DNA of 32,000 bases from Pseudoalteromonas translucida KMM 520 (GTDB taxonomy: Bacteria > Pseudomonadota > Gammaproteobacteria > Enterobacterales > Alteromonadaceae), in NCBI RefSeq assembly GCF_001465295.1, contig NZ_CP011035.1, positions 1 through 32,000 on the forward strand, given 5' to 3'. This document shows positions 160-31,211 of the stretch, piece after piece (positions within the stretch are counted from its first letter, which is position 1; every line of letters starts with the position of its first letter). The notes beneath the pieces are model-generated. The model had not been told where the DNA came from. It made no database searches and was given only the letters and a program-made list of their open reading frames with translations. The position numbers were made by a program, and so were the translations under genes.

Positions 160-1398
160 ATGTCTATCAATAATAATGCGCTAAGTACCTACCGGCTTTT
201 GAAAGCAACTGCTGAAGTTGCTGAAAAGTCACTAGAAGGACGTATACAACATTATCGCGCTCATCTTAAATCTGAAGAAAAAGAATTAAGAACTTATACG
301 CAAAAAGCTGCTGCCGATCTGCTTGGTTGTAACAATCGTACCTTAAAAAGACGCCACGACAATGGTGATTTTGATAATTTAAATATCAAACGTGGTGCTA
401 ATGGTCATTATGCTTACACTTTGGTAAATATTTTTGCCATGGCCGATATTATGGATATTCAGCCAGATCACCGTACTGGAGATGACAAACTACAAGTTAT
501 TGTAATTAACTCCCTAAAAGGCGGTTGTGGTAAAACAACTAGTATGGTTAATATTGCAGCAGCACTGGCAACTACAAATATAAAACGCTACCGTATTGGT
601 ATTATTGATTTAGATCCTCAAGGTTCATCATCTAGCTTTTTTCCATCAGCAGAGCCCGATCCAATCACCGTTGGCGATTTAATGCGTGATTGTATTGAAT
701 TAGACGAAGGTGAAACGTGGCCTGAATTTGTATCAAGCTCATTTTTACCTACACATATTCCAAATATTCGTGTTTTACCATCTGGTATGGATGATTTTTA
801 TTTTGAACACGAAACAGCAACTTTACTCAAAGACACCTCAAATTACGAACAAACCCGTCATTATCATAAGTTACTTGAAAAAGTAATAGACCCAGTAAAA
901 GACGAGTTTGATGTGTTATTAATCGACACAGCACCAACCCTTAACTTTATGTTTTATAATGCATTAATGGCATCTACAGCGATGCTAATACCAGTTCACC
1001 CTGAAGCGGTAGACTTTGATGCTAATAATAAATATTTAAAACGTTTAGGCGAGATTTATCATACAGTTGCAGCCCTAGGCCATGAAGGATGGGACTTTAT
1101 GCAGTTTTTAGTAACTAACTATGTAAAAGGTAACCATTCACAACGCGATATTGTTAAAGATGTTCGTAGTGCTTTTGGTCGTCAAGTAATGAGTTACCCA
1201 ATTAATCATAGCTCAGCAATAACAGCCAGTTCGTCTTCTTTTAACACTATTTTTGATCAAAAAGCGTCAGATAGTTTAGCTAGTCGCGAATCGTTAATGC
1301 GTGCCCAAGAAAATATAAAAGATGTAGTTGATGAGCTTGAAATGCTGATCCGCTCTAATTGGCAATCTACACAATCAAAACTAAATACCCCTAAGTAA
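160..1398 (+). CDS. parA: Type Ia partition ATPase ParA (long form with N-terminal HTH extension)
   Basis: 412-aa ORF. Deviant Walker A KGGCGKTT; IIDLDPQG and VLLIDTAP motifs. About 110-aa N-terminal extension with HTH-like TQKAAADLLGCNNRTLKRR, as in P1 ParA, F SopA and Vibrio ParA2. GAGG Shine-Dalgarno upstream of the ATG. parB starts 16 nt downstream. Confidence 0.9.
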   Translation: MSINNNALSTYRLLKATAEVAEKSLEGRIQHYRAHLKSEEKELRTYTQKAAADLLGCNNRTLKRRHDNGDFDNLNIKRGANGHYAYTLVNIFAMADIMDIQPDHRTGDDKLQVIVINSLKGGCGKTTSMVNIAAALATTNIKRYRIGIIDLDPQGSSSSFFPSAEPDPITVGDLMRDCIELDEGETWPEFVSSSFLPTHIPNIRVLPSGMDDFYFEHETATLLKDTSNYEQTRHYHKLLEKVIDPVKDEFDVLLIDTAPTLNFMFYNALMASTAMLIPVHPEAVDFDANNKYLKRLGEIYHTVAALGHEGWDFMQFLVTNYVKGNHSQRDIVKDVRSAFGRQVMSYPINHSSAITASSSSFNTIFDQKASDSLASRESLMRAQENIKDVVDELEMLIRSNWQSTQSKLNTPK

Positions 1399-1413
1399 GG
1401 ATGTTAAACAAAA

Positions 1414-2376
1414 ATGGCTAAAAAACGTAAAAATGACACCCGCTTAGACCCTTTTGCAACAGCGGTCGGTAGTAGTAGTCTTGATGCTTTATTAGAGCAA
1501 GCAAACGCAGGCGATGTAATTCGTATGCCTGCACCAAGCGATCCTACCCGAGAAATTACCCTAGTTTGTAAAGTAATTTCCCATAGTGACATTGAGTCAA
1601 CAACCCAGGTATATGGCAAAAACCGCCGAGTACAATCGCTGTTAAATGAAAAGTCGGTATCCGACATTCTACCGGCAATAAAAGAAGATGGCCGTAATCA
1701 ACACCCGGCACTTCTGTGGGATCAAGGTGATACAAGCTTAGTACTTGCGGGATCACGCCGTCGTAAAGCCTGCATTTTGGGTAATGCCGATTATTTAGTA
1801 TTAAGCTCTAGTGACTTTACCGATAAAGATGCAAAAATTTTAGCTGTTTCCTCGGATCAATACATAGCACCTAGCTTATGGGAACTTGGACAAGCTTATC
1901 AAAACACTAAAAATGAATTAATTGAGCAAGGTAAAAAAGGTTCCTACCGTGAAATTGCAGTTATTGAGGGCGTGTCGCACACCGCGGTTGCCGATGCAAT
2001 AAAAGCATACGAGCAAATCCCAGCAGATATTGTTGCACTTTACCCTACCGCTAATCATGTTGGTCGTGAAGTGGCTAAAAAGCTAATTAGCGCAAAGGAG
2101 CGCGACCAAGCAGCCTTTAACCAGCTAGTTGCTGACATTGCTAATCATGAAGACATAAACGCAGCAGCAAGCGATGACAAGCGTGCAATGGCTATTACTA
2201 AGTATTTAACTACCGAACCAAAAATAGCCGTTAAACGTGAAGTTGTGCTTGAGAGTAACTTTGTTTCAGTACAGCGCAGTTTAAAAAATGGTGATGTTTC
2301 AATAAAAATAAACAATAAAGTTATGACAGACAAGCGCTTAGAGCAACTTACTAAGCTATTAGCTGCATTTAACTAG
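1414..2376 (+). CDS. parB: Partition protein ParB (centromere-binding)
   Basis: 320-aa ORF directly after parA. Arginine patch LVLAGSRRRKACIL (ParB/Srx box). HTH-like segment SYREIAVIEGVSHTAVADAIKAY. Confidence 0.85.
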   Translation: MAKKRKNDTRLDPFATAVGSSSLDALLEQANAGDVIRMPAPSDPTREITLVCKVISHSDIESTTQVYGKNRRVQSLLNEKSVSDILPAIKEDGRNQHPALLWDQGDTSLVLAGSRRRKACILGNADYLVLSSSDFTDKDAKILAVSSDQYIAPSLWELGQAYQNTKNELIEQGKKGSYREIAVIEGVSHTAVADAIKAYEQIPADIVALYPTANHVGREVAKKLISAKERDQAAFNQLVADIANHEDINAAASDDKRAMAITKYLTTEPKIAVKREVVLESNFVSVQRSLKNGDVSIKINNKVMTDKRLEQLTKLLAAFN

Positions 2377-2580: not shown

Positions 2581-2800
2581 TGTAAACCCCCTTCTTTGTT
2601 AGTAAGTTGTTTTTAACTTGTGAGTTAGCTGTGTTCTTTATTTTAAATAAATAATAATTAGCCCGGTATTTAGCTATAAATCAATTTTTTACTAAGCGCT
2701 CAGCTCCAACCAGTTTATTTAACGTTAATATTGCTTTAGCTCAGAGCATATAAGGCATATACTAAAAAAATTGTTTTTAAAATTTAATACTTTGAGTGAC

Positions 2801-5800
2801 ATGTCTGCTAACTTATCTAAAACTGATCTAATGGCTATTTTTGAAGAAATTAAAAATGAGCAGGCTACCCAGTTTCCTCTTTCTGAACGCTTCATTAAAA
2901 AATTGTTTAAGCCCGCCGTATTGGCTAAAGGTAAAGCGTATTATAAAAACGGCCAAATTAGCTGGTTAGAGCATAATAGCGATTTTTCAGTTGTGGATTC
3001 AACAGTACGTGGCGACAAAGGTATTTCGTTTAATCAACGTATTGAGATCAGTAAAGTACCTACTGGTTACTCGGTAGACACTCACTGTACTTGTAACGTT
3101 AAAACGAAATGCCGCCACCTAGCTGCTATTTTACTCAAGCTTAAAATAGAACACTCTGGTGAGTACGGCGAAGACTACTTTATTAATGATTGGTTTACTG
3201 AGCTCGGAGCACTTAAAAACAGCACCGAACAACCACCTTCACAAGTGCTTTTATTTGTATTAGATATAGAAAACAATAAAGTGTTTTTAACGCCAAAAAT
3301 AGCTAATTACGATGAAAATCAAAGCTATGCCTTAGGCCGTAACCTTACCGAACAACAGCTAAACAGCTTTGTAACTCCTAGCGATTTATTAGAAAGCGAC
3401 TTTAGATTATTTAGCTGGATACGCTCACAAAATGCAGTAGGTAATATTGAGCTTAAAGGGCAATGGGGTTTTAACGCACTACAACAACTTATAGCAACCG
3501 ATAGGTTGTTTTTACAACGATCACGCGTATCTATTAAAGCGCAAACAGGTCAAGCGTTAAGCTTTAGTTGGCAGCAAGTAAAAGATCTTACCCAATTAAA
3601 AGTTAATTTAGAAAACAGCAAAAATTGGACACTAATTAAAACTACGCCACCTACTTATTTAGATCTCGATACTTATAAAGTAGGACGTATTCGCACGCCC
3701 TTAAGTGCAGATGAAATTGCCCACTTACAAACAATTCCAGCATTACACGATACTAATTTTGACCGTATTTATAAACAACTCGCTGATAACTTTGGCTCGG
3801 GTGTTATTCCGCATCCCACTAATGAAAAAAACAATACCTCAAAACTCTCTAGTAATGCTGTTTTAAAGGTAACAATGTCGGCGGAAGGCTTAACACTTTC
3901 GTTATTATTTAAATATAAAAATAAAAACTATTTGGCAGGCACCGCGCCAGAAACTCTAGTAAATAGTGCTTTTGAAAACACTGTAAAAAATGAGCTAATA
4001 AATTTAGGTTTCGATTTTTGTAAAGGGGGTTTACAAAGCGAGTTTATTTTTAATAAACAATCGCCCATTCATTTACACTGGTTAGTATATGAGGTGTTTC
4101 CTAGCTTTGTACAACGTGGCTGGAAAGTATCGGTTAGTAAAGTAAATGCTGTTAACCCACAAAGCCAAGTAGCTTTGCATGTGCACCGTACTGCGGGCCA
4201 TCAAATGCAGTGCAAAATTATATTAAACGATGCTAAAGCTACGTTATTATTTAATCAAACTGATGCTCATTATGAATCGTTAAATCGTCAAAGTGAGTTG
4301 TTTTATTACTACCCAATAGGTCGTGAGTTTGGCGCTATAAATAAAGCAGCGTTGCATTTGTTAAATGAGTTTAAACAACGATTTGAATTTATAAAAACCA
4401 GAGATGAGTTTAATATTCCGCTTTCATACTTGCCTGAACTGGTAAGTCATACTGCTATAAATGTTGAACTACACGACGAATCATTGTCGCGTTATTTAGA
4501 AGAGCTAAATAGTAATGACCAGTCGCGCCCCACTACGCTTATACAAGGGTTAAATGACTCAGTTGTATTGCGCGAGTATCAGCAGCAAGGGGTTGCGTGG
4601 TTAAACTTTTTAAAGCGTCATCAGCTTGGCGGAATTTTAGCAGACGACATGGGCTTAGGTAAAACACTGCAAGTTATTGCTTACCTAACAAGTAGTTATA
4701 ATAATGCGCAGGCAGGCCCTACACTTATTGTGTGCCCTACAAGCCTAGTAAGCAATTGGGAAAAAGAAATAACCAAGTTTGCTAAAAACTTAAAAGTAAC
4801 CACTATTTTTGGTGCCCAGCGTAATGAGTTATTACAAAATGTAGCGCAAGCACAATGTATATTAACTACTTATCCGCTACTTAAACGCGATATTGCGTAT
4901 TATTCACCACTTTATTTTGAAAATATTATACTCGACGAAGCGCAATATATTAAAAACGATACCGCCCAGGTATCGCGTTTAGTAAAGCGCCTTAATGCCG
5001 ACTTTAAGCTTTGCTTAAGTGGTACGCCAATAGAGAACAACTTGTTTGAGCTTAAATCATTACTTGATTTTGCTATGCCGTCATTACTTGGCTCACAAAC
5101 GCATTTTAAAACTCACTTTCAAACGCCAATTGAGCGTGAGAGCAATGCAGAGCGAGCACAGCAGCTTAAAGACTTAATTATGCCGTTTATATTACGCCGT
5201 ACTAAAGCGCAAGTTGCTCAAGAGTTACCGCTAAAAACAGAGTTAATTAAAGAGTTTGAATTTGAGCCAAAACAAAAAGAAATGTACCACAGTATTACCC
5301 AGGCATTAGAAGAAAAACTAACTGATCTGTTTTCTGAACAAGGCATGCAAAAAAGTAAACTTGCCTTTTTAGAAGCACTGCTAAAATTAAGGCAAATTTG
5401 TTGTCACCCTAAATTAATAGAACCAACAACTCAGGCCGGCAGTGCAAAGCTAGAATGGCTAAGTAATCGCTTACCGCTAATGCTAAGCCTAGGTAGAAAA
5501 GTAATTATATTTAGTCAGTTTACTTCTGCGCTCGATCTTATTGCTGAACGTCTAAAAGAAATAAATATAAACTTTAGTTTATTAACCGGACAAACACGCC
5601 AGCGCGATAAAGTAATTGATGAGTTTACCAGTGGTGCAACATCGGTGTTTTTAATTAGTTTAAAAGCCGGTGGTACGGGGCTTAATTTAACGCAAGCCGA
5701 CACGGTAATTCATTACGATCCTTGGTGGAACCCAGCAGTAGAAAAACAAGCCACAGATCGTGCTTATCGTATTGGCCAAACTAACCCAGTGTTTGTGTAT

Positions 5801-5947
5801 AAACTTATTATGGCAAATTCAATTGAAGAAAAAGTATTTAAAATGCAACAAGACAAGCAAGCTCTTGTAGATGCATTATTTACCGAAAAATCAATGAGTT
5901 TTACCCAGTTTGACGAGCAACAAATGCTCTCTTTAATTAAAGATTAA
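2801..5947 (+). CDS. SNF2-family helicase with N-terminal SWIM zinc finger
   Basis: SWIM CxC..CxH signature HCTCNVKTKCRH. SNF2 motifs LADDMGLGKT (I), LDEAQYIKN (II), LSGTPIEN (III), SLKAGGTGLNLT and QATDRAYRIGQ (V/VI). The ORF track starts at TTG 2771; I prefer ATG 2801 (MSANLSK), but the start is uncertain. Confidence 0.85.
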   Translation: MSANLSKTDLMAIFEEIKNEQATQFPLSERFIKKLFKPAVLAKGKAYYKNGQISWLEHNSDFSVVDSTVRGDKGISFNQRIEISKVPTGYSVDTHCTCNVKTKCRHLAAILLKLKIEHSGEYGEDYFINDWFTELGALKNSTEQPPSQVLLFVLDIENNKVFLTPKIANYDENQSYALGRNLTEQQLNSFVTPSDLLESDFRLFSWIRSQNAVGNIELKGQWGFNALQQLIATDRLFLQRSRVSIKAQTGQALSFSWQQVKDLTQLKVNLENSKNWTLIKTTPPTYLDLDTYKVGRIRTPLSADEIAHLQTIPALHDTNFDRIYKQLADNFGSGVIPHPTNEKNNTSKLSSNAVLKVTMSAEGLTLSLLFKYKNKNYLAGTAPETLVNSAFENTVKNELINLGFDFCKGGLQSEFIFNKQSPIHLHWLVYEVFPSFVQRGWKVSVSKVNAVNPQSQVALHVHRTAGHQMQCKIILNDAKATLLFNQTDAHYESLNRQSELFYYYPIGREFGAINKAALHLLNEFKQRFEFIKTRDEFNIPLSYLPELVSHTAINVELHDESLSRYLEELNSNDQSRPTTLIQGLNDSVVLREYQQQGVAWLNFLKRHQLGGILADDMGLGKTLQVIAYLTSSYNNAQAGPTLIVCPTSLVSNWEKEITKFAKNLKVTTIFGAQRNELLQNVAQAQCILTTYPLLKRDIAYYSPLYFENIILDEAQYIKNDTAQVSRLVKRLNADFKLCLSGTPIENNLFELKSLLDFAMPSLLGSQTHFKTHFQTPIERESNAERAQQLKDLIMPFILRRTKAQVAQELPLKTELIKEFEFEPKQKEMYHSITQALEEKLTDLFSEQGMQKSKLAFLEALLKLRQICCHPKLIEPTTQAGSAKLEWLSNRLPLMLSLGRKVIIFSQFTSALDLIAERLKEININFSLLTGQTRQRDKVIDEFTSGATSVFLISLKAGGTGLNLTQADTVIHYDPWWNPAVEKQATDRAYRIGQTNPVFVYKLIMANSIEEKVFKMQQDKQALVDALFTEKSMSFTQFDEQQMLSLIKD

Positions 5948-6008
5948 AATATTTTTAAATATCCAGATCTTTTTTGAACTTAATTAAATATGCAGCGTCT
6001 ACTATTAT

Positions 6009-6112
6009 GCTAGCGGTTGAATTGCAGTTTAACCAAGCATTATGTTGATTTCCCATTTAGTTACTTAAATAAGTAATGATTTAGCCAGCCCACTTTAGGG
6101 CTGGCTTTTTTT
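6009..6112 (+). ncRNA. Candidate sRNA, tandem copy 1 of 5
   Basis: Promoter GAACTT (5976-5981), 16-nt spacer, TCTAC (5998-6002). Stem-loop 1 GGTTGAA/TTTAACC, conserved unpaired CATTATGTTGATTTCCC, stem-loop 2 TTACTTA/TAAGTAA. Terminator AGCCAGCCC (6083-6091)/GGGCTGGCT (6098-6106) plus a T-run to 6112. The 5' end is estimated from promoter geometry. Confidence 0.55.
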
Positions 6113-6196
6113 ATGCCTTTTTTACACGGCTGCTTTGCACATAAACTTAAGTTTATTTTTTTTGAACTTAATTAAATATTCAACGTCTACTATATT

Positions 6197-6301
6197 GCTA
6201 GCGGTTGAATTGCAGTTCAACCAAGTTTCATGTTGATCCCCCCCTATTTAGTTACTAAATTTAGTAATGATTAAGCCAACTCATTTGAGTTGGTTTTTTT
6301 T
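6197..6301 (+). ncRNA. Candidate sRNA, tandem copy 2 of 5
   Basis: GAACTT (6164-6169), 16-nt spacer, TCTAC (6186-6190). Perfect stem-loop 1 GGTTGAA-TTGCAG-TTCAACC. Stem-loop 2 is the palindrome TTACTAAATTTAGTAA. Terminator AGCCAACTCA/TGAGTTGGTT plus a T-run to 6301. Confidence 0.55.
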
Positions 6302-6391
6302 GCAAAAAATTACTTAGTAGCCCTCTAAACAACATATAAATAAATTTAAATTATTATTGAACTAAATACTCAACTTGCCGTCTACTATTAT

Positions 6392-6496
6392 GCTTGTTAT
6401 TACATTGCAGTTAATTCAAGTTTCATGTTGATTCCCCTATTTAGTTACTAAGTTTAGTAATGATTGAGCCAGCTCGTTTGAGTTGGCTTTTTTTTT
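6392..6496 (+). ncRNA. Candidate sRNA, tandem copy 3 of 5
   Basis: GAACTA (6359-6364), 16-nt spacer, TCTAC (6381-6385). Stem-loop 1 is rebuilt with different bases (CTTG..ATTA / TAAT..CAAG) around the same TTGCAG loop. Terminator GAGCCAGCTCG/TGAGTTGGCT plus a T-run to 6496. Confidence 0.55.
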
Positions 6497-6585
6497 GCAA
6501 AAAATACTTAGTAGCCCTCTAAACAACTTATAAATAAATTTAAATTATTGTTGAACCAAATATTAAATTTGCCGTCTACTATTAT

Positions 6586-6690
6586 GCTTGTTATTACATT
6601 GCAGTTAATTCAAGTTTCATGTTGATTCCCCTATTTAGTTACTAAGTTTAGTAATGATTGAGCCAGCTCGTTGGAGTTGGCTTTTTTTTT
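6586..6690 (+). ncRNA. Candidate sRNA, tandem copy 4 of 5
   Basis: GAACCA (6553-6558), 16-nt spacer, TCTAC (6575-6579). The transcribed part is identical to copy 3 except one base in the terminator. T-run ends at 6690. Confidence 0.55.
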
Positions 6691-6778
6691 GCAAAAATAC
6701 TTAGCAGCCCTCTAAACAACATATAAATAAATTTAAATTATTGTTGAACTAAATACTCAACTTGCCGTCTACTATTAT

Positions 6779-6880
6779 GCTTGTGGTGAATTGTTGTTAA
6801 CGCCAGTTTCATGTTGATTTCCCTATTTGGTTACTAGTTTTAGTAATGTTAGGCCAACCTTTTGTAGGTTGGCTTTTTTT
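6779..6880 (+). ncRNA. Candidate sRNA, tandem copy 5 of 5
   Basis: GAACTA (6746-6751), 16-nt spacer, TCTAC (6768-6772). Divergent stem-loop 1, conserved CATGTTGATTTCCC segment, stem-loop 2 TTACTA/TAGTAA. Terminator AGGCCAACCT/AGGTTGGCT plus a T-run to 6880. Confidence 0.5.
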
Positions 6881-6964
6881 ATGCCTTTAATTTATATCCC
6901 GCCCTACTGCTATCGATAGTTATTCGTTATGATGGCATGTCTCTAAATTTAATAAGTTTATTTT

Positions 6965-8431
6965 ATGTTTTCTCAGTTATTAACTCATATTGATTGGCTA
7001 AGTGTCGGCGTAGGCGTTACCGCAGGTGGCGTACTTTGTAGCCTAGTATCTGCATCGCTTAGTAAAAAATTAAAACAACAACTTAGTGAGCAACAACAGC
7101 AGTTGTCGTTATTGCAAAGTCAGTTTGATAACAAAACCCTGCAGTACACCCAATTAGCGGATGATCACGAACTTTTAGAGCATAGCCATCAAGAGCAACG
7201 CGACCAAGCACAGCACTTTAAAACCCGCTTTACCGAGCAAGAAAAACAAAGCCAGCAATATAATCAGTTTTGGCAAAAAGCTGAAGCTGAGCTAAGTGCA
7301 CTGCGCAAACAGTATAGCCAACGCGATGTAGAGCTAAATAATATACGCACTACGCTTGAGCAAAAACAACAACACTTTAGCGAGCAACTTGCGCAAATAG
7401 AGCAAAGCAAAGAGATGCTTAAAAAAGAGTTCGAAAACTTAGCAAATCAAATTTTAGAAGAAAAATCACAAAAGTTTAAAGTGCTCAATCAAGAAAGCAT
7501 TGAGCAACTATTAAAACCAGTGCAAGGCGAGCTAAAAGGTTTTCGCGACAAAATGGAGTCAATCCATGTTGAAGACTTAAAGCAACGCGCCGCGCTTAAA
7601 ACCGAGTTATTGCATTTACAAGCAAAAAGCCAAGCCATAACCGAGCAAGCCGACAGGCTCAGTAACGCCCTACAAGGACAAAAGAAAACCCAAGGTAATT
7701 GGGGCGAGTTAATGCTAGAAAACGTGCTAGACAGCGCAGGCTTACGCGCAGGCGTAGACTACAAACGCGAGGTGTCGTTTAACACCGAAGATGGCCGCTT
7801 ACGCCCCGATGTAGTTGTGTATTTACCCCAAGGTCGCCATTTAGTTATTGACGCTAAAACTTCGTTAAACGCCTACACACGCTATGTTAACGCCGATAAC
7901 GAGCTAGCAGCACAGCAAGCTATTAAAGAGCACGTTGAGGCTGTTAAGGCGCGTATAAACGAGCTTGCGAGTAAATCGTACGACCGTCTACCTGGGCTTA
8001 ACTCGCCCGAAGTAGTGGTGATGTTTGTACCAATAGAATCAGCCTTTGTTGAAGCGCTTAAATACCAAAGTGATATTTACCAGCAAGCAATCGAAAAAAA
8101 TATTTTAGTGGCAACCCCCACTACCTTGCTCACTAGTTTAAATATAGTTAAACAGCTATGGCGCTTTGAAGAACAAACTAAATACTCAAAAGAACTGGCA
8201 GCCCGAGCCGAGCGTTTTTATAACAAGCTCAACGGCTTTTTAACCAGCATGGAAGGGGTTGGCAAACAGCTCGATCGTGCTAAAGAAAGCTACGACAAAG
8301 CGTTTTCGCAGCTTTACCGAGGTAAAGGTAACTTAATTAAACAGGCAAGCGAGTTTAAAGAGCTGGGTGTATCGGTACAAAAAGAATTACCAGCAGAGAG
8401 CGTTGAACGTGCAAATTTAGAATTAGATTAA
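6965..8431 (+). CDS. rmuC: DNA recombination protein RmuC
   Basis: 488 aa. N-terminal TM helix and a long Q/E-rich coiled coil. C-terminal block GNWGELMLENVLDSAGLRAGVDYKREVSF...RPDVVVYLPQGRHLVIDAKTSLNAY is collinear with E. coli RmuC as I recall it. Confidence 0.9.
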   Translation: MFSQLLTHIDWLSVGVGVTAGGVLCSLVSASLSKKLKQQLSEQQQQLSLLQSQFDNKTLQYTQLADDHELLEHSHQEQRDQAQHFKTRFTEQEKQSQQYNQFWQKAEAELSALRKQYSQRDVELNNIRTTLEQKQQHFSEQLAQIEQSKEMLKKEFENLANQILEEKSQKFKVLNQESIEQLLKPVQGELKGFRDKMESIHVEDLKQRAALKTELLHLQAKSQAITEQADRLSNALQGQKKTQGNWGELMLENVLDSAGLRAGVDYKREVSFNTEDGRLRPDVVVYLPQGRHLVIDAKTSLNAYTRYVNADNELAAQQAIKEHVEAVKARINELASKSYDRLPGLNSPEVVVMFVPIESAFVEALKYQSDIYQQAIEKNILVATPTTLLTSLNIVKQLWRFEEQTKYSKELAARAERFYNKLNGFLTSMEGVGKQLDRAKESYDKAFSQLYRGKGNLIKQASEFKELGVSVQKELPAESVERANLELD

Positions 8432-27875: not shown

Positions 27876-28050
27876 CCTAGGCGTGTTTGGTATTATGTGT
27901 GGTTATTGCCTTTTTATGGGAATAACCACACTACATAGGCTCTGCCTTACCTAAAACCAAATATAACGCTGCAAATTAAACCTTAAAAAGATCAGCTACC
28001 CCTAGTGTTTTAGCGACTAAACCTTTACTAAATCCTAGCTAAATATTTAC

Positions 28051-28089
28051 TTAGCATGCTAACTAATGGTAAAGTGCTTAGCATGCTAA
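28051..28089. promoter_or_regulatory. Two copies of the perfect 12-bp palindrome TTAGCATGCTAA; candidate MarR operator
   Basis: Copies at 28051-28062 and 28078-28089, 27 bp centre to centre, ending 17 nt upstream of the marR ATG. Confidence 0.55.
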
Positions 28090-28105
28090 GTAGTTAGAGG
28101 TTGAA

Positions 28106-28597
28106 ATGTCTAAACCAGTTCCTTTTCATGAAACACTCGATTTAACCTTGTGTGGCAGTATGGGTCGAGTGCATAGGTTATGCCGAGAAGTTGTTACAGT
28201 TGCCGTTGAGCCGCTAGGTTTAACTCAGTCGCGTTGGATTGCTTTGGTGCATATAAATATGCTTAAAGAAGGAGTAACTCAACAAGCCTTGGCGCATAGT
28301 TTAGGCATTGAAATGCCGTCGCTTACGCGCACGCTTAAGCAACTCGAAGAGCTTACTCTTATTACCCGTCAAGTTGATAAGCACGATAAGCGCAGTAAAA
28401 AAATTTATTTTACAGAGCAAGGCCGCAATATATTACAGGCGGTAGAGGCACAGATCACTGATATTAAAAATCAGCTTTATAATGGACTAAACGATGAGCA
28501 GCTTGATTTAATGGCTCATGGTTTAATTAAAATGGAAGACAACGCAAAAAATTATATTAAATATCACAGTTCTAATAAGGCTAACAATGACACCTGA
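28106..28597 (+). CDS. MarR-family transcriptional regulator
   Basis: 163 aa. wHTH GVTQQALAHSLGIEMPSLTRTLKQLEELTLITR followed by the wing DKHDKRSKKIYFT. Confidence 0.9.
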   Translation: MSKPVPFHETLDLTLCGSMGRVHRLCREVVTVAVEPLGLTQSRWIALVHINMLKEGVTQQALAHSLGIEMPSLTRTLKQLEELTLITRQVDKHDKRSKKIYFTEQGRNILQAVEAQITDIKNQLYNGLNDEQLDLMAHGLIKMEDNAKNYIKYHSSNKANNDT

Positions 28598-29664: not shown

Positions 29665-30714
29665 ATGAGTCAAAAAATTAGCCAGTCTCCACAACTTGAT
29701 TCAAACGGCCTACGCCAAGCACTGCGTATTGCCGGCGGGTGCACGTTAGGGTTTGCTATTAGTAAATTAATGGACTGGCCAAATGGGATTTTTTTTACCG
29801 TTTACCCCATGTTGCTATTAGGCTTAGTGCCAACATTAAATAAATCTGTGGTTAGGCAGTTTTTTGCCAGTGCCGCATTTAGTGCGTTTGTTGTGCTTAT
29901 ATTACAGGGGTTATTTTCGCACTTGCCGGTGCTTATGGTACTGATTGTATTTGCCTGTTTTTGTATTTTATTTTACCAAATGAGTAGCGGAAGTGGCTTT
30001 TTGTTTGGTGCCTTAGGTGCGGTTAGTTTATCGATTCAATTACACTTTGCCAGCTACGTAACCAGTAGTAGCAGTATTTATCCGCTTATTTTAAGTAACG
30101 GTATAGCCATTATTTTAACTGTAGTAATTGCAGCATTAATGCATGGTTTATTCCCCGATGTTACTGCGCGCCCTGGGCGTGCAGTGCCAACAAAAGATAA
30201 AGCAAGTATTCGCCACGAAGTGCTGTTGTGCTCAAGCGTGGCTACGTTATCGTTTATTGTTTTTCAGGTACTGGATTTACAAGACTCTATTTCGGCGCAG
30301 GCGGCATCTATTTTAATTTTATTTTCGTTGTGTTGGAAAGCCGCAGGCATAGCCAGTTGGCAGCGTATAATTGGCACGCTTATAGGCTGTAATGCCGCGC
30401 TTTTGTCGCAGTTGTTTTTATACACTCATACCGACTTTTTACTGTTTCCTGTTATTGTGTTGTGGATTTTATCGTTTATATTTAGTCGTTTTCATATTTT
30501 AGGTGGAGGGCCGCCGGGCATTGGCTTTGGTGTTTTAACCACGTTTGGTATTTTATTTGGGCAGTCGTTAGCCCCTGGGCAAGACTTGATTTACAGTGCG
30601 TTGTATAGGTTTAGCTCTGTAACAGTGGCTGTTGTGGTTAGCTTAAGTGCGGTATATGTAATGCACAGAGTATTAAATAAATTTAATACTACACGCCATC
30701 ATACCTACGATTAG
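29665..30714 (+). CDS. FUSC/AaeB-like inner-membrane efflux component (DUF2955-type, tentative)
   Basis: 349-aa polytopic membrane protein in the typical marR-hlyD-membrane protein arrangement. Family named from memory of that gene context, not from a motif. Confidence 0.55.
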   Translation: MSQKISQSPQLDSNGLRQALRIAGGCTLGFAISKLMDWPNGIFFTVYPMLLLGLVPTLNKSVVRQFFASAAFSAFVVLILQGLFSHLPVLMVLIVFACFCILFYQMSSGSGFLFGALGAVSLSIQLHFASYVTSSSSIYPLILSNGIAIILTVVIAALMHGLFPDVTARPGRAVPTKDKASIRHEVLLCSSVATLSFIVFQVLDLQDSISAQAASILILFSLCWKAAGIASWQRIIGTLIGCNAALLSQLFLYTHTDFLLFPVIVLWILSFIFSRFHILGGGPPGIGFGVLTTFGILFGQSLAPGQDLIYSALYRFSSVTVAVVVSLSAVYVMHRVLNKFNTTRHHTYD

Positions 30715-30739
30715 CGATTAGCGATTAGCGATTAGCGAT
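30709..30739. repeat. Heptanucleotide microsatellite (GATTAGC) x4.4
   Basis: GATTAGC at 30709, 30716, 30723 and 30730, plus GAT. The first unit contains the stop codon TAG (30712-30714) of the preceding gene. Confidence 0.9.
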
Positions 30740-30797: not shown

Positions 30798-31211
30798 CTA
30801 AAGCTTAATATTGCCGCGTAATGCTTTGGTTTGGCCGTGTTTGGTTTTTTTATCCATGCGTTTACGCTGCGAATTACGGCTAGGTTTAGTGGCTCTGCGG
30901 GCTTTATTTACTTTAGTGGCGTTAATAATTAGATCTTTTAAGCGTTTAAATGCATCTTCGCGATTAAGCTCTTGCGTGCGGTGGCTTTGCGCTTTTATTA
31001 TTAATACGCCGTCTTTGGTTATGCGGCTATCGTTTAGTGCAAGTAAGCGTTCTTTATAAAAGTCGGGTAATTTAGAGCGGTTAATATCAAAACGAAGATG
31101 AATAGCGCTGGCTACTTTATTAACGTTTTGTCCACCGGCACCTTGCGAGCGAACTGCGGTTAATTCGACTTCCCATTCATCAATGGTCACGGTATTTGAA
31201 ATAGTTAACAT
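30798..31211 (-). CDS. arfB: Alternative ribosome-rescue factor ArfB (YaeJ), peptidyl-tRNA hydrolase
   Basis: 137 aa. GGQ motif in SQGAGGQNVNKV and a basic C-terminal tail KARRATKPSRNSQRKRMDKKTKHGQTK. Confidence 0.9.
   Translation of the reverse strand: MLTISNTVTIDEWEVELTAVRSQGAGGQNVNKVASAIHLRFDINRSKLPDFYKERLLALNDSRITKDGVLIIKAQSHRTQELNREDAFKRLKDLIINATKVNKARRATKPSRNSQRKRMDKKTKHGQTKALRGNIKL

Follow-up and report, generated by a model that had tools for sequence, protein, structure and literature searches.

Organisation of the locus

The window analysed in this study comprises 32,000 nucleotides (nt), positions 1 to 32,000 of contig NZ_CP011035.1 of Pseudoalteromonas translucida KMM 520 (assembly GCF_001465295.1), and the element described here is a tandem array of putative small RNA (sRNA) genes at 5975-6880. 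The array consists of five head-to-tail units between two genes of DNA-repair type, that of a SNF2-family helicase (2771..5947, + strand; Pfam SNF2-rel_dom, Helicase_C and ResIII) and rmuC (6965..8431, + strand; Pfam PF02646), which is the downstream neighbour and lies outside the element. The product of rmuC is 100% identical to RmuC of P. translucida KMM 520. Tandem Repeats Finder reported a tandem array at 6209-6884 with a period of 194, 3.5 copies and 89% matches, and the mean column identity in a five-way alignment of the units was 81%. The unit spans given by nhmmer were 5972-6117, 6160-6302, 6356-6498, 6551-6693 and 6744-6885, corresponding to unit-to-unit periods of 188, 196, 195 and 193. 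The nhmmer spans place the five unit starts within 2 nt of those proposed in a first-pass annotation, which had been made from the letters of the sequence without database searches. The units share one architecture, TGAAC(T/C)(T/A)-N16-TCTAC followed by a body of ~104 nt and a G+C-rich hairpin with 7-9 T. The + strand holds five terminator-like sites, which coincide with the ends of the units; 0.5 such sites were expected. The description of every unit as a complete gene with a promoter, a structured body and a strong rho-independent terminator has held; as a small correction, the -35 heptamers are located at 5975-5981, 6163-6169, 6358-6364, 6552-6558 and 6745-6751.

In unit 1 the promoter (5975..6002, +) has its -35 element TGAACTT at 5975-5981, a 16-nt spacer and the -10 element TCTAC at 5998-6002. 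The RNA (6009..6112, +) is predicted to start at G 6009 and is composed of stem-loop 1, the core, stem-loop 2 and the terminator (6083-6106 plus the U-run), the single-stranded core CAUUAUGUUGAUUUCCCAUUU (6038-6058) lying between the two stem-loops. This RNA folds with -32.9 kcal/mol (z -3.7), and unit 1 is designated a 'type A' copy, the core of which lengthens the match to the start codon of a receptor gene discussed below. Unit 2 has the promoter TGAACTT-N16-TCTAC (6163..6190, +) and the RNA at 6197..6301 (+), with the core UUUCAUGUUGAUCCCCCCCUAUUU and a run of seven C. In unit 3 the promoter TGAACTA-N16-TCTAC (6358..6385, +) is followed by the RNA at 6392..6496 (+) with the core UUUCAUGUUGAUUCCCCUAUUU. 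The RNA of unit 4 (6586..6690, +) is near-identical to that of unit 3; the promoter of unit 4, TGAACCA-N16-TCTAC (6552..6579, +), has one departure in the -35 element. Unit 5 carries the promoter TGAACTA-N16-TCTAC (6745..6772, +) and the RNA at 6779..6880 (+), with the core UUUCAUGUUGAUUUCCCUAUUU and a divergent stem-loop 1. The C-run of the core ranges from 3 to 7 C among the copies, here and at other loci (seven in unit 2, at 6240-6246 of the window), a pattern that resembles homopolymer slippage, and its varying length alters how far apart the two halves of the pairing region lie.

Promoter of the units

The pattern GAACT-N16-GTCTA, with at most one mismatch, was found at all five units and as one other weak match in the 32 kb. 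The shuffled controls gave a mean of 1.06 matches, and six were reached in 0/100 of them. Among 136 distinct full-length homologues of the unit, the -35 heptamer TGAACT[AT] is present in 122 and the -10 element GTCTA[CT] in 135, and the spacer between them is variable in sequence and 16-17 nt long by the GGAACTT/TCAAA convention. A T/A-rich tract lies upstream of the -35 element. The G located 7 nt after TCTAC is conserved in all clades and was taken as the predicted start, i.e., 6009, 6197, 6392, 6586 and 6779 in the window.

In the published consensus of Escherichia coli sigma-E promoters (PMC1312014), GGAACTT and TCAAA are separated by a spacer with a strong preference for 16 nt, the discriminator is 5-6 nt long, transcription begins at a purine and the region upstream is AT-rich. 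In the E. coli genome the rybB promoter reads AGAACTT-N16-TCTTA-N6-G(+1) and the micA promoter TGAACTC-N16-TCTGA-N6-G(+1). Unit 1 reads TGAACTT-N16-TCTAC-N6-G, and a T-run upstream of the -35 element is common to all three. At the level of sequence, the promoter architecture of the units is identical to that of the enterobacterial sigma-E (RpoE) promoters, with the -35 and -10 elements, spacer, discriminator and purine start of the ECF02 type of extracytoplasmic function (ECF) sigma factor. The sigma-E-type assignment made in the first-pass annotation therefore fits both the published consensus and the micA/rybB layout. Its statement that there is no usable sigma-70 promoter is borne out as well, no promoter of this type being found on the + strand of the window, and the sigma-70 reading is rejected. 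A sigma-54/Qrr reading was also rejected, since a GG-N10-GC element is absent and the Qrr score is 18 bits. The 680-kb second chromosome (chromid) of strain HL-AS2, a close relative, carries four copies of the RNA gene, and a weight matrix derived from the RNA promoters matched the promoters of these four copies only when run on it. From this promoter architecture we infer that RpoE drives the RNA promoters.

Structure of the RNA

All five RNA bodies fold better than their shuffles (z -2.5 to -4.3). For the covariation test, a three-helix structure was evaluated on a sequence-only alignment of 122 distinct RNA sequences. Standard pairs occupied 92.3% of the cells, against 21-49% after sliding the partners by 1-3 columns, and both sides had changed in 15 of the 25 pairs. 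The covariation score was 0.247 compared with 0.151 in the shuffles, and 0/500 shuffles reached it. The 5' hairpin is the most variable, with 9 of its 11 pairs changed on both sides; in this stem-loop 1 the 5' end of the RNA, GCUUGUUG..., forms one strand and covaries with the strand opposite. RNAalifold independently found the second hairpin and the terminator. The three helices are thus supported by compensatory changes, in keeping with the first-pass observation that the stems are maintained by different bases in different copies.

The first and the second hairpin are separated by an unpaired stretch, and the core of this stretch, AUGUUGAU(U/C)nCCC, is practically invariant. This invariance is partly one of ascertainment, because the pattern scan by which homologues were collected demanded ATGTTGAT; the same core is also present in additional copies of the arrays and in the loci selected by synteny. 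The units had been called non-coding from the start, and across the homologous arrays no conserved open reading frame (ORF) was found on either strand. The ORF whose RTG start codon overlaps the predicted start varies from 3 to 39 codons across the homologues, and many arrays are without any ORF of at least 25 codons. The unit is an independent gene having an intrinsic terminator with a U-tail and a conserved unpaired region, as is typical for genes of Hfq-type sRNAs.

Distribution in Pseudoalteromonas

Seven loci (L001-L007) were fetched through RmuC homologues, blind to the RNA and its promoter, and all seven carry the element with its promoter directly after the SNF2 gene. There are three copies in P. 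haloplanktis and one copy each in P. lipolytica, P. luteoviolacea, P. fenneropenaei, strain JC3 and P. xiamenensis. In case of P. phenolica one shortened variant is found (L005 4785-4900), which has the promoter TGAACTA...GTCTAT, keeps the terminator and the run UUUCCCCCC / UUUAUUUCCCCCC, and is without CAUGUUGAU and the second hairpin. Since this short variant retains it, the C-rich part may be the oldest functional piece of the RNA.

The pattern scan covered one genome per species in 185,579 species and returned 79 stretches, of which 60 are in Pseudoalteromonas and 19 are single matches in unrelated phyla (Akkermansia, cyanobacteria and others). The latter received no confirmation from nhmmer and are regarded as chance matches; by the scan of these genomes together with nhmmer, the gene was confirmed in no genus besides Pseudoalteromonas. 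In total, nhmmer identified 159 copies in 68 Pseudoalteromonas loci, 37 with one copy and the others with two to six. The gap from the end of the SNF2 gene to the array was measured where that end lay in the fetched sequence (~60 of the 68 loci), and amounts to 36 nt or less in most of them, 62-119 nt in three and 1109 nt in one (L012). The array periods are, with few exceptions, 145-200 bp. The pigmented clade and the lipolytica/shioyasakiensis group typically have single copies, and the haloplanktis/arctica/atlantica group typically has arrays. In clades other than that of the window, further genes stand between the RNA gene and rmuC.

In arrays of the arctica/fuliginea type, rmuC is preceded by a final unit that is a longer paralogue, ~145 nt in length (L015 6341-6505, L016 2310-2478, L073 6162-6326 and L058 3271-3436 on the minus strand, as well as L020, L046, L055 and L068). 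Its first hairpin is enlarged by an insertion of ~40 nt, its -35 element is TGAATTA in place of TGAACTA, and its core is CACAUGUUGAUUUUCCC. Taken together, the RNA family extends through the whole genus with strict synteny and a varying copy number. Two of its traits are less common, the tandem amplification up to six copies and the constant location at the 3' end of a single protein gene.

Candidate targets of the core

Inside the window, the target search revealed nothing that pairs with the core beyond the shuffled controls. The target scan was then based on 1372 candidate start regions of the complete HL-AS2 chromid (680,547 bp; NZ_CP133572.1), which were compared with the single-stranded part of the RNAs of this strain. 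For the type A core, the second-best of the 1372 start regions belongs to an Oar-like TonB-dependent receptor of 1068 amino acids (RB215_RS16490 in HL-AS2), whose gene lies downstream of an S1/P1 nuclease gene; this pair of genes is found on the chromid across the genus. The block CGGGAAA..CAACA..AUG at the receptor start is kept across the genus and the sequence upstream of it diverges. The start region reads CGGGAAAACAACAUAAUG in HL-AS2 and P. nigrifaciens, CGGGAAAUCAACAUUAUG in BSW20308 (P. fuliginea), CGGGAAAUAACAUAAUG in CF6-2, CGGGAAACAACACAAUG in P. xiamenensis and P. luteoviolacea, and CGGGAAAUGAAACAAUG in P. piscicida. Among the outgroups, Thalassotalea retains only GGGAAAC of this block and Colwellia nothing.

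The first unit of BSW20308 contains AUAAUGUUGAUUUCCC, which is a 16-nt perfect Watson-Crick complement of GGGAAAUCAACAUUAU. The sequence CAUUAUGUUGAUUUCCC, present in the first unit of HL-AS2 and in unit 1 of the window, forms 10 + 6 pairs with the receptor start, with one A-A mismatch; for unit 1 of the window the pairing was judged against the receptor starts of HL-AS2 and P. nigrifaciens as proxies. The single copy of CF6-2 forms 9 + 7 pairs with one bulge. Between the BSW20308 and HL-AS2 lineages a compensatory exchange is seen, CAUAAUG->CAUUAUG in the mRNA and CAUUAUG->AUAAUG in the RNA. The extension to the receptor start is confined to the first unit in both arrays, the later units having UUUCAUG. 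Since the differences of these later copies lie immediately 5' of the core and in the C-run length, their targets are probably in part others than those of the first unit. On the basis of this complementarity, the Oar-like receptor is considered a probable target. Two more TonB-dependent receptor genes of the HL-AS2 chromid, RS16495 (CAUGGGAAAACAAAAUG) and RS16875 (ACACGGGAAACAAAUAUG), have similar starts (start regions at L097 9343 and L098/L099 450173) and may be additional targets.

The top match among the 1372 start regions, with -27.8 kcal/mol, is the start of the anti-sigma factor gene chrR. Its site AAAUGGGAGAUCAGCAUGAU forms 20 contiguous pairs, three of them G-U, with AUUAUGUUGAUUUCCCAUUU, and covers the Shine-Dalgarno sequence and AUG of chrR, along with the final codons of the sigma gene that chrR overlaps. 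In the shuffled-core control the best value for the same core type was -23.4 (12 shuffles), and across the three core types 1/36 was lower than the chrR energy. The site is kept in the non-pigmented clade (-21 to -30 kcal/mol) and is weak in P. piscicida. The predicted duplex makes chrR a possible target, about which we are doubtful. More tentative still is the idea that the array does more than curb outer-membrane proteins, and that one or more of its copies pair across the junction of the sigma stop and the chrR start and shift the ratio of sigma to anti-sigma factor, by which the envelope-stress sigma factor would be linked to that of photo-oxidative stress; in such an arrangement unit 1 would serve the receptor and the other units would act elsewhere. 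If true, the chrR link would be an unusual case of cross-talk between sigma factors.

The ECF sigma/ChrR operon is located on the minus strand of the HL-AS2 chromid at 241817-243170 (L094 41817-43170) and is followed by genes for a photolyase, a cyclopropane-fatty-acid synthase and related functions. Promoters of the form TGATCC-N16-CCGTAT occur at 243169 and 234524 of the same chromid, which is the classic layout of a singlet-oxygen regulon, here on a chromid.

Proposed mechanism and alternatives

The interpretation that we favour, and consider probable, is that the five units are paralogous genes for a trans-acting, base-pairing sRNA of ~104 nt, which is transcribed from an RpoE-type promoter and blocks the synthesis of an outer-membrane receptor. 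Under envelope stress RpoE would be released and all the copies would be transcribed at once, so that the dose would depend on the number of copies. Probably together with Hfq at the U-tail of the terminator, the RNA would use its core to bind the start codon AUG and a Shine-Dalgarno-like GGGAAA in its target mRNAs. Such pairing would block the initiation of translation and promote decay of the mRNA, with the Oar-like receptor as the best candidate, and the diverging flanks of the core may divide the target range among the copies. The logic would be that of MicA, RybB, VrrA and MicV, i.e., less new outer-membrane protein when the envelope is damaged. TonB-dependent receptors are dominant outer-membrane proteins of marine heterotrophs, and the control of such a receptor by an envelope-stress RNA, if true, would be physiologically relevant.

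Several observations weigh against this interpretation. On the side of the promoter, 16 envelope-related genes of the HL-AS2 chromid, among them bamB, genes for prolyl isomerases and DsbA, porin genes and ushA, are without such a promoter upstream. On the side of the targets, the scan covered the second chromosome of one strain, with ~80% of the genome, including chromosome I, outside it. Duplex energies have little power to discriminate: the energy of the receptor duplex is within the range of the shuffled cores, and Thalassotalea, an outgroup presumably without the RNA, also gives ~-20 kcal/mol. Taken as a class, the 16 receptor genes on the chromid show no significant enrichment for complementarity (p = 0.077). 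The receptor match amounts to only 6 + 5 bp in the pigmented clade, where the core is nonetheless unchanged, so other, unseen targets must constrain the core. The chrR site, for its part, is absent in P. xiamenensis, and since it falls within the 3' coding part of the sigma gene, little can be concluded from its conservation.

Among the alternatives, the one that survives best is transcription of the RNAs by another ECF sigma factor, for example the one partnered with ChrR. Combined with the chrR site, this would constitute a positive feedback in which the sigma factor makes the RNA and the RNA blocks the anti-sigma factor. The RNA motif also fits the generic ECF rule (an AAC-like -35 and a CGT -10 element), both types of promoter read TGAxC-N16-CGT, and chrR is first among the start regions of the chromid. 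However, TGATCC-N16-CCGTAT is the form of two promoters on the same replicon, that of the ChrR-type operon itself and another one within the gene cluster of this operon, whereas the RNA promoters read TGAACT-N16-GTCTA and match those of micA and rybB position for position. These differences, AAC against ATC in the -35 and GTCTA against GTAT in the -10 element, are consistent across the genus, and they make the ChrR-type sigma factor a less likely driver than RpoE; on the whole we regard this alternative as unlikely.

A role of the units in cis is distinctly less probable than this. In such a case they would serve the SNF2 gene as a stack of terminators, as a stabilising 3' untranslated region or as products processed from its mRNA, and would have no stress-controlled function in trans. 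The proximity of the array to the SNF2 stop codon in most measurable loci agrees with it, as does the terminator scan, by which no terminator of its own was found for the SNF2 gene; transcripts that read through from SNF2 and end in unit 1 are therefore likely too. Yet read-through of this kind would add to the promoter-driven expression and not replace it, and a stack of terminators needs neither a conserved promoter in every unit, nor an invariant single-stranded core of 13 nt, nor a covarying 5' hairpin.

It is about as improbable that the RNA binds or titrates a protein instead of base pairing, with the C-run and the several copies providing multiple binding sites. Multi-copy arrays with a conserved C-rich strand could suit protein binding, but the core is complementary to the start region with a compensatory change, and this argues for base pairing. 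A particular form of this reading, a CsrB/RsmZ-type sponge like the Csr sponges Pf1-3, was rejected: these are the only sRNAs of Pseudoalteromonas described in the literature found and they have GGA motifs, whereas no GGA occurs in the RNA of unit 1. Moreover, the peaks of CsrA in RNA immunoprecipitation sequencing of P. fuliginea BSW20308 exclude its array (681975-682913, NZ_CP013139.1). Finally, an array of type I toxin-antitoxin or small-protein genes, like Ldr/Rdl or Ibs/Sib, hardly deserves consideration, for although such toxin-antitoxin loci are often tandem with units of similar size, the lack of any conserved ORF already contradicts and removes both forms of it, and periods down to 145-160 bp leave no room between the units.

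Other features of the window and of the chromid

Homologues of parA and parB are found at the start of the window (160-2376), and the same genes open the chromosome II record in P. phenolica; the locus hence lies near the partition genes, in the opening part of the second chromosome. In HL-AS2 a gene for a Tus-like (replication-terminus-binding) protein lies ~2 kb past parA/parB on their other side (L092 14620-15495), which is an unusual neighbourhood for partition genes.

Elsewhere in the window, a perfect heptamer repeat, CGATTAG x 4.6 with 100% matches in Tandem Repeats Finder, occupies 30708-30739, at the 3' end of the ORF 29665-30714 and in the gap before the convergent ORF 30798-31211. 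On the minus strand at ~28040-28122, in the gap upstream of the ORF at 28106, the palindrome TTAGCATGCTAAG occurs twice after a loose sigma-E-like match (GGAACTGG...CCTCTAA). The arrangement resembles an operator for a local regulator. The orthologous region of HL-AS2 contains a MarR-HlyD-DUF2955 cluster.

Comparison with known small RNAs

The sigma-E-dependent sRNAs are a textbook arm of the envelope-stress response, known mainly from enterobacteria and Vibrio, and their sequences are unrelated between groups. The family described here would be the equivalent in Pseudoalteromonas, a genus which serves as a model for cold adaptation, marine biofilms and biotechnology. As one to six tandem copies with diverging pairing regions are found, it would also offer a natural series for studying the duplication and specialisation of sibling sRNAs.

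The first-pass annotation did not recognise the units as a known family, and in the Rfam 15 check of the window and 10 diverse loci no family (MicA, RybB, VrrA, Qrr and MicC included) reached its gathering score. The matches below threshold, at most 29.7 bits, were to Ref84, VqmR, MicC, VrrA, Qrr, RyhB and others, and align mainly to the terminator hairpin. In the literature found, including that on the Csr system of P. fuliginea, no such RNA is described; the RNA-seq sRNome catalogue of this species (PubMed 30362272) was outside this search, and an earlier anonymous detection is possible.

The closest likeness is with MicA (RF00078) and RybB (RF00110), which have the same promoter layout xGAACTx-N16-TCTxx-N6-G(+1) with a T-rich upstream region and are likewise short RNAs with an intrinsic terminator. 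They repress the synthesis of outer-membrane proteins through base pairing at ribosome-binding sites, and this is also the role proposed for the Pseudoalteromonas RNA. On the other hand, no similarity in sequence or by covariance model was found, neither of the two appearing even at E <= 10. Further, the pairing region of MicA and RybB is at the 5' end, whereas in the Pseudoalteromonas RNA it is internal, between two hairpins, and of different sequence. MicA and RybB are also single-copy, in contrast to the one to six tandem copies of the Pseudoalteromonas family.

VrrA (RF01456) and MicV of Vibrio are sigma-E-dependent sRNAs of a marine gammaproteobacterium, two related regulators side by side with overlapping outer-membrane protein targets (PMC6694218). 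A seed common to RybB, MicV and VrrA, CRCUGCUUUU, has been defined (PMC6694218). This seed is absent from the Pseudoalteromonas RNA, and the VrrA match, at 19.7 bits, is below the gathering score of 50 for that family. With both the seed and the covariance models failing, the RNA is not a member of the MicA, RybB, VrrA or MicV families. VrrA and MicV are, besides, unlinked single genes and not a tandem array.

In case of OmrA and OmrB of enterobacteria, two sRNA genes are adjacent and duplicated, and the targets include the TonB-dependent receptors cirA, fecA and fepA. They differ from the Pseudoalteromonas RNA in being driven by OmpR and not by an ECF sigma factor, in pairing through the 5' end and in having two copies only, and there is no sequence relation. 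LhrC1-5 of Listeria and the CcsR1-4 'cuckoo' RNAs of Rhodobacter are tandem sibling sRNAs which are induced by envelope or oxidative stress and pair through C-rich strands with Shine-Dalgarno sequences, and CcsR is located directly downstream of a protein gene. These belong to other phyla or classes, have LisRK and RpoHI/HII as regulators, show no sequence relation, and carry several C-rich loops per RNA as compared to one core in the Pseudoalteromonas RNA. The parallels drawn in the first-pass annotation with LhrC and with MicA, RybB and VrrA are hence apt as analogies and do not extend to membership. Judged from its sequence features, the array is best described as belonging to a putative new, Pseudoalteromonas-specific family of sigma-E-type sRNAs, which would represent a well-known kind of regulator.

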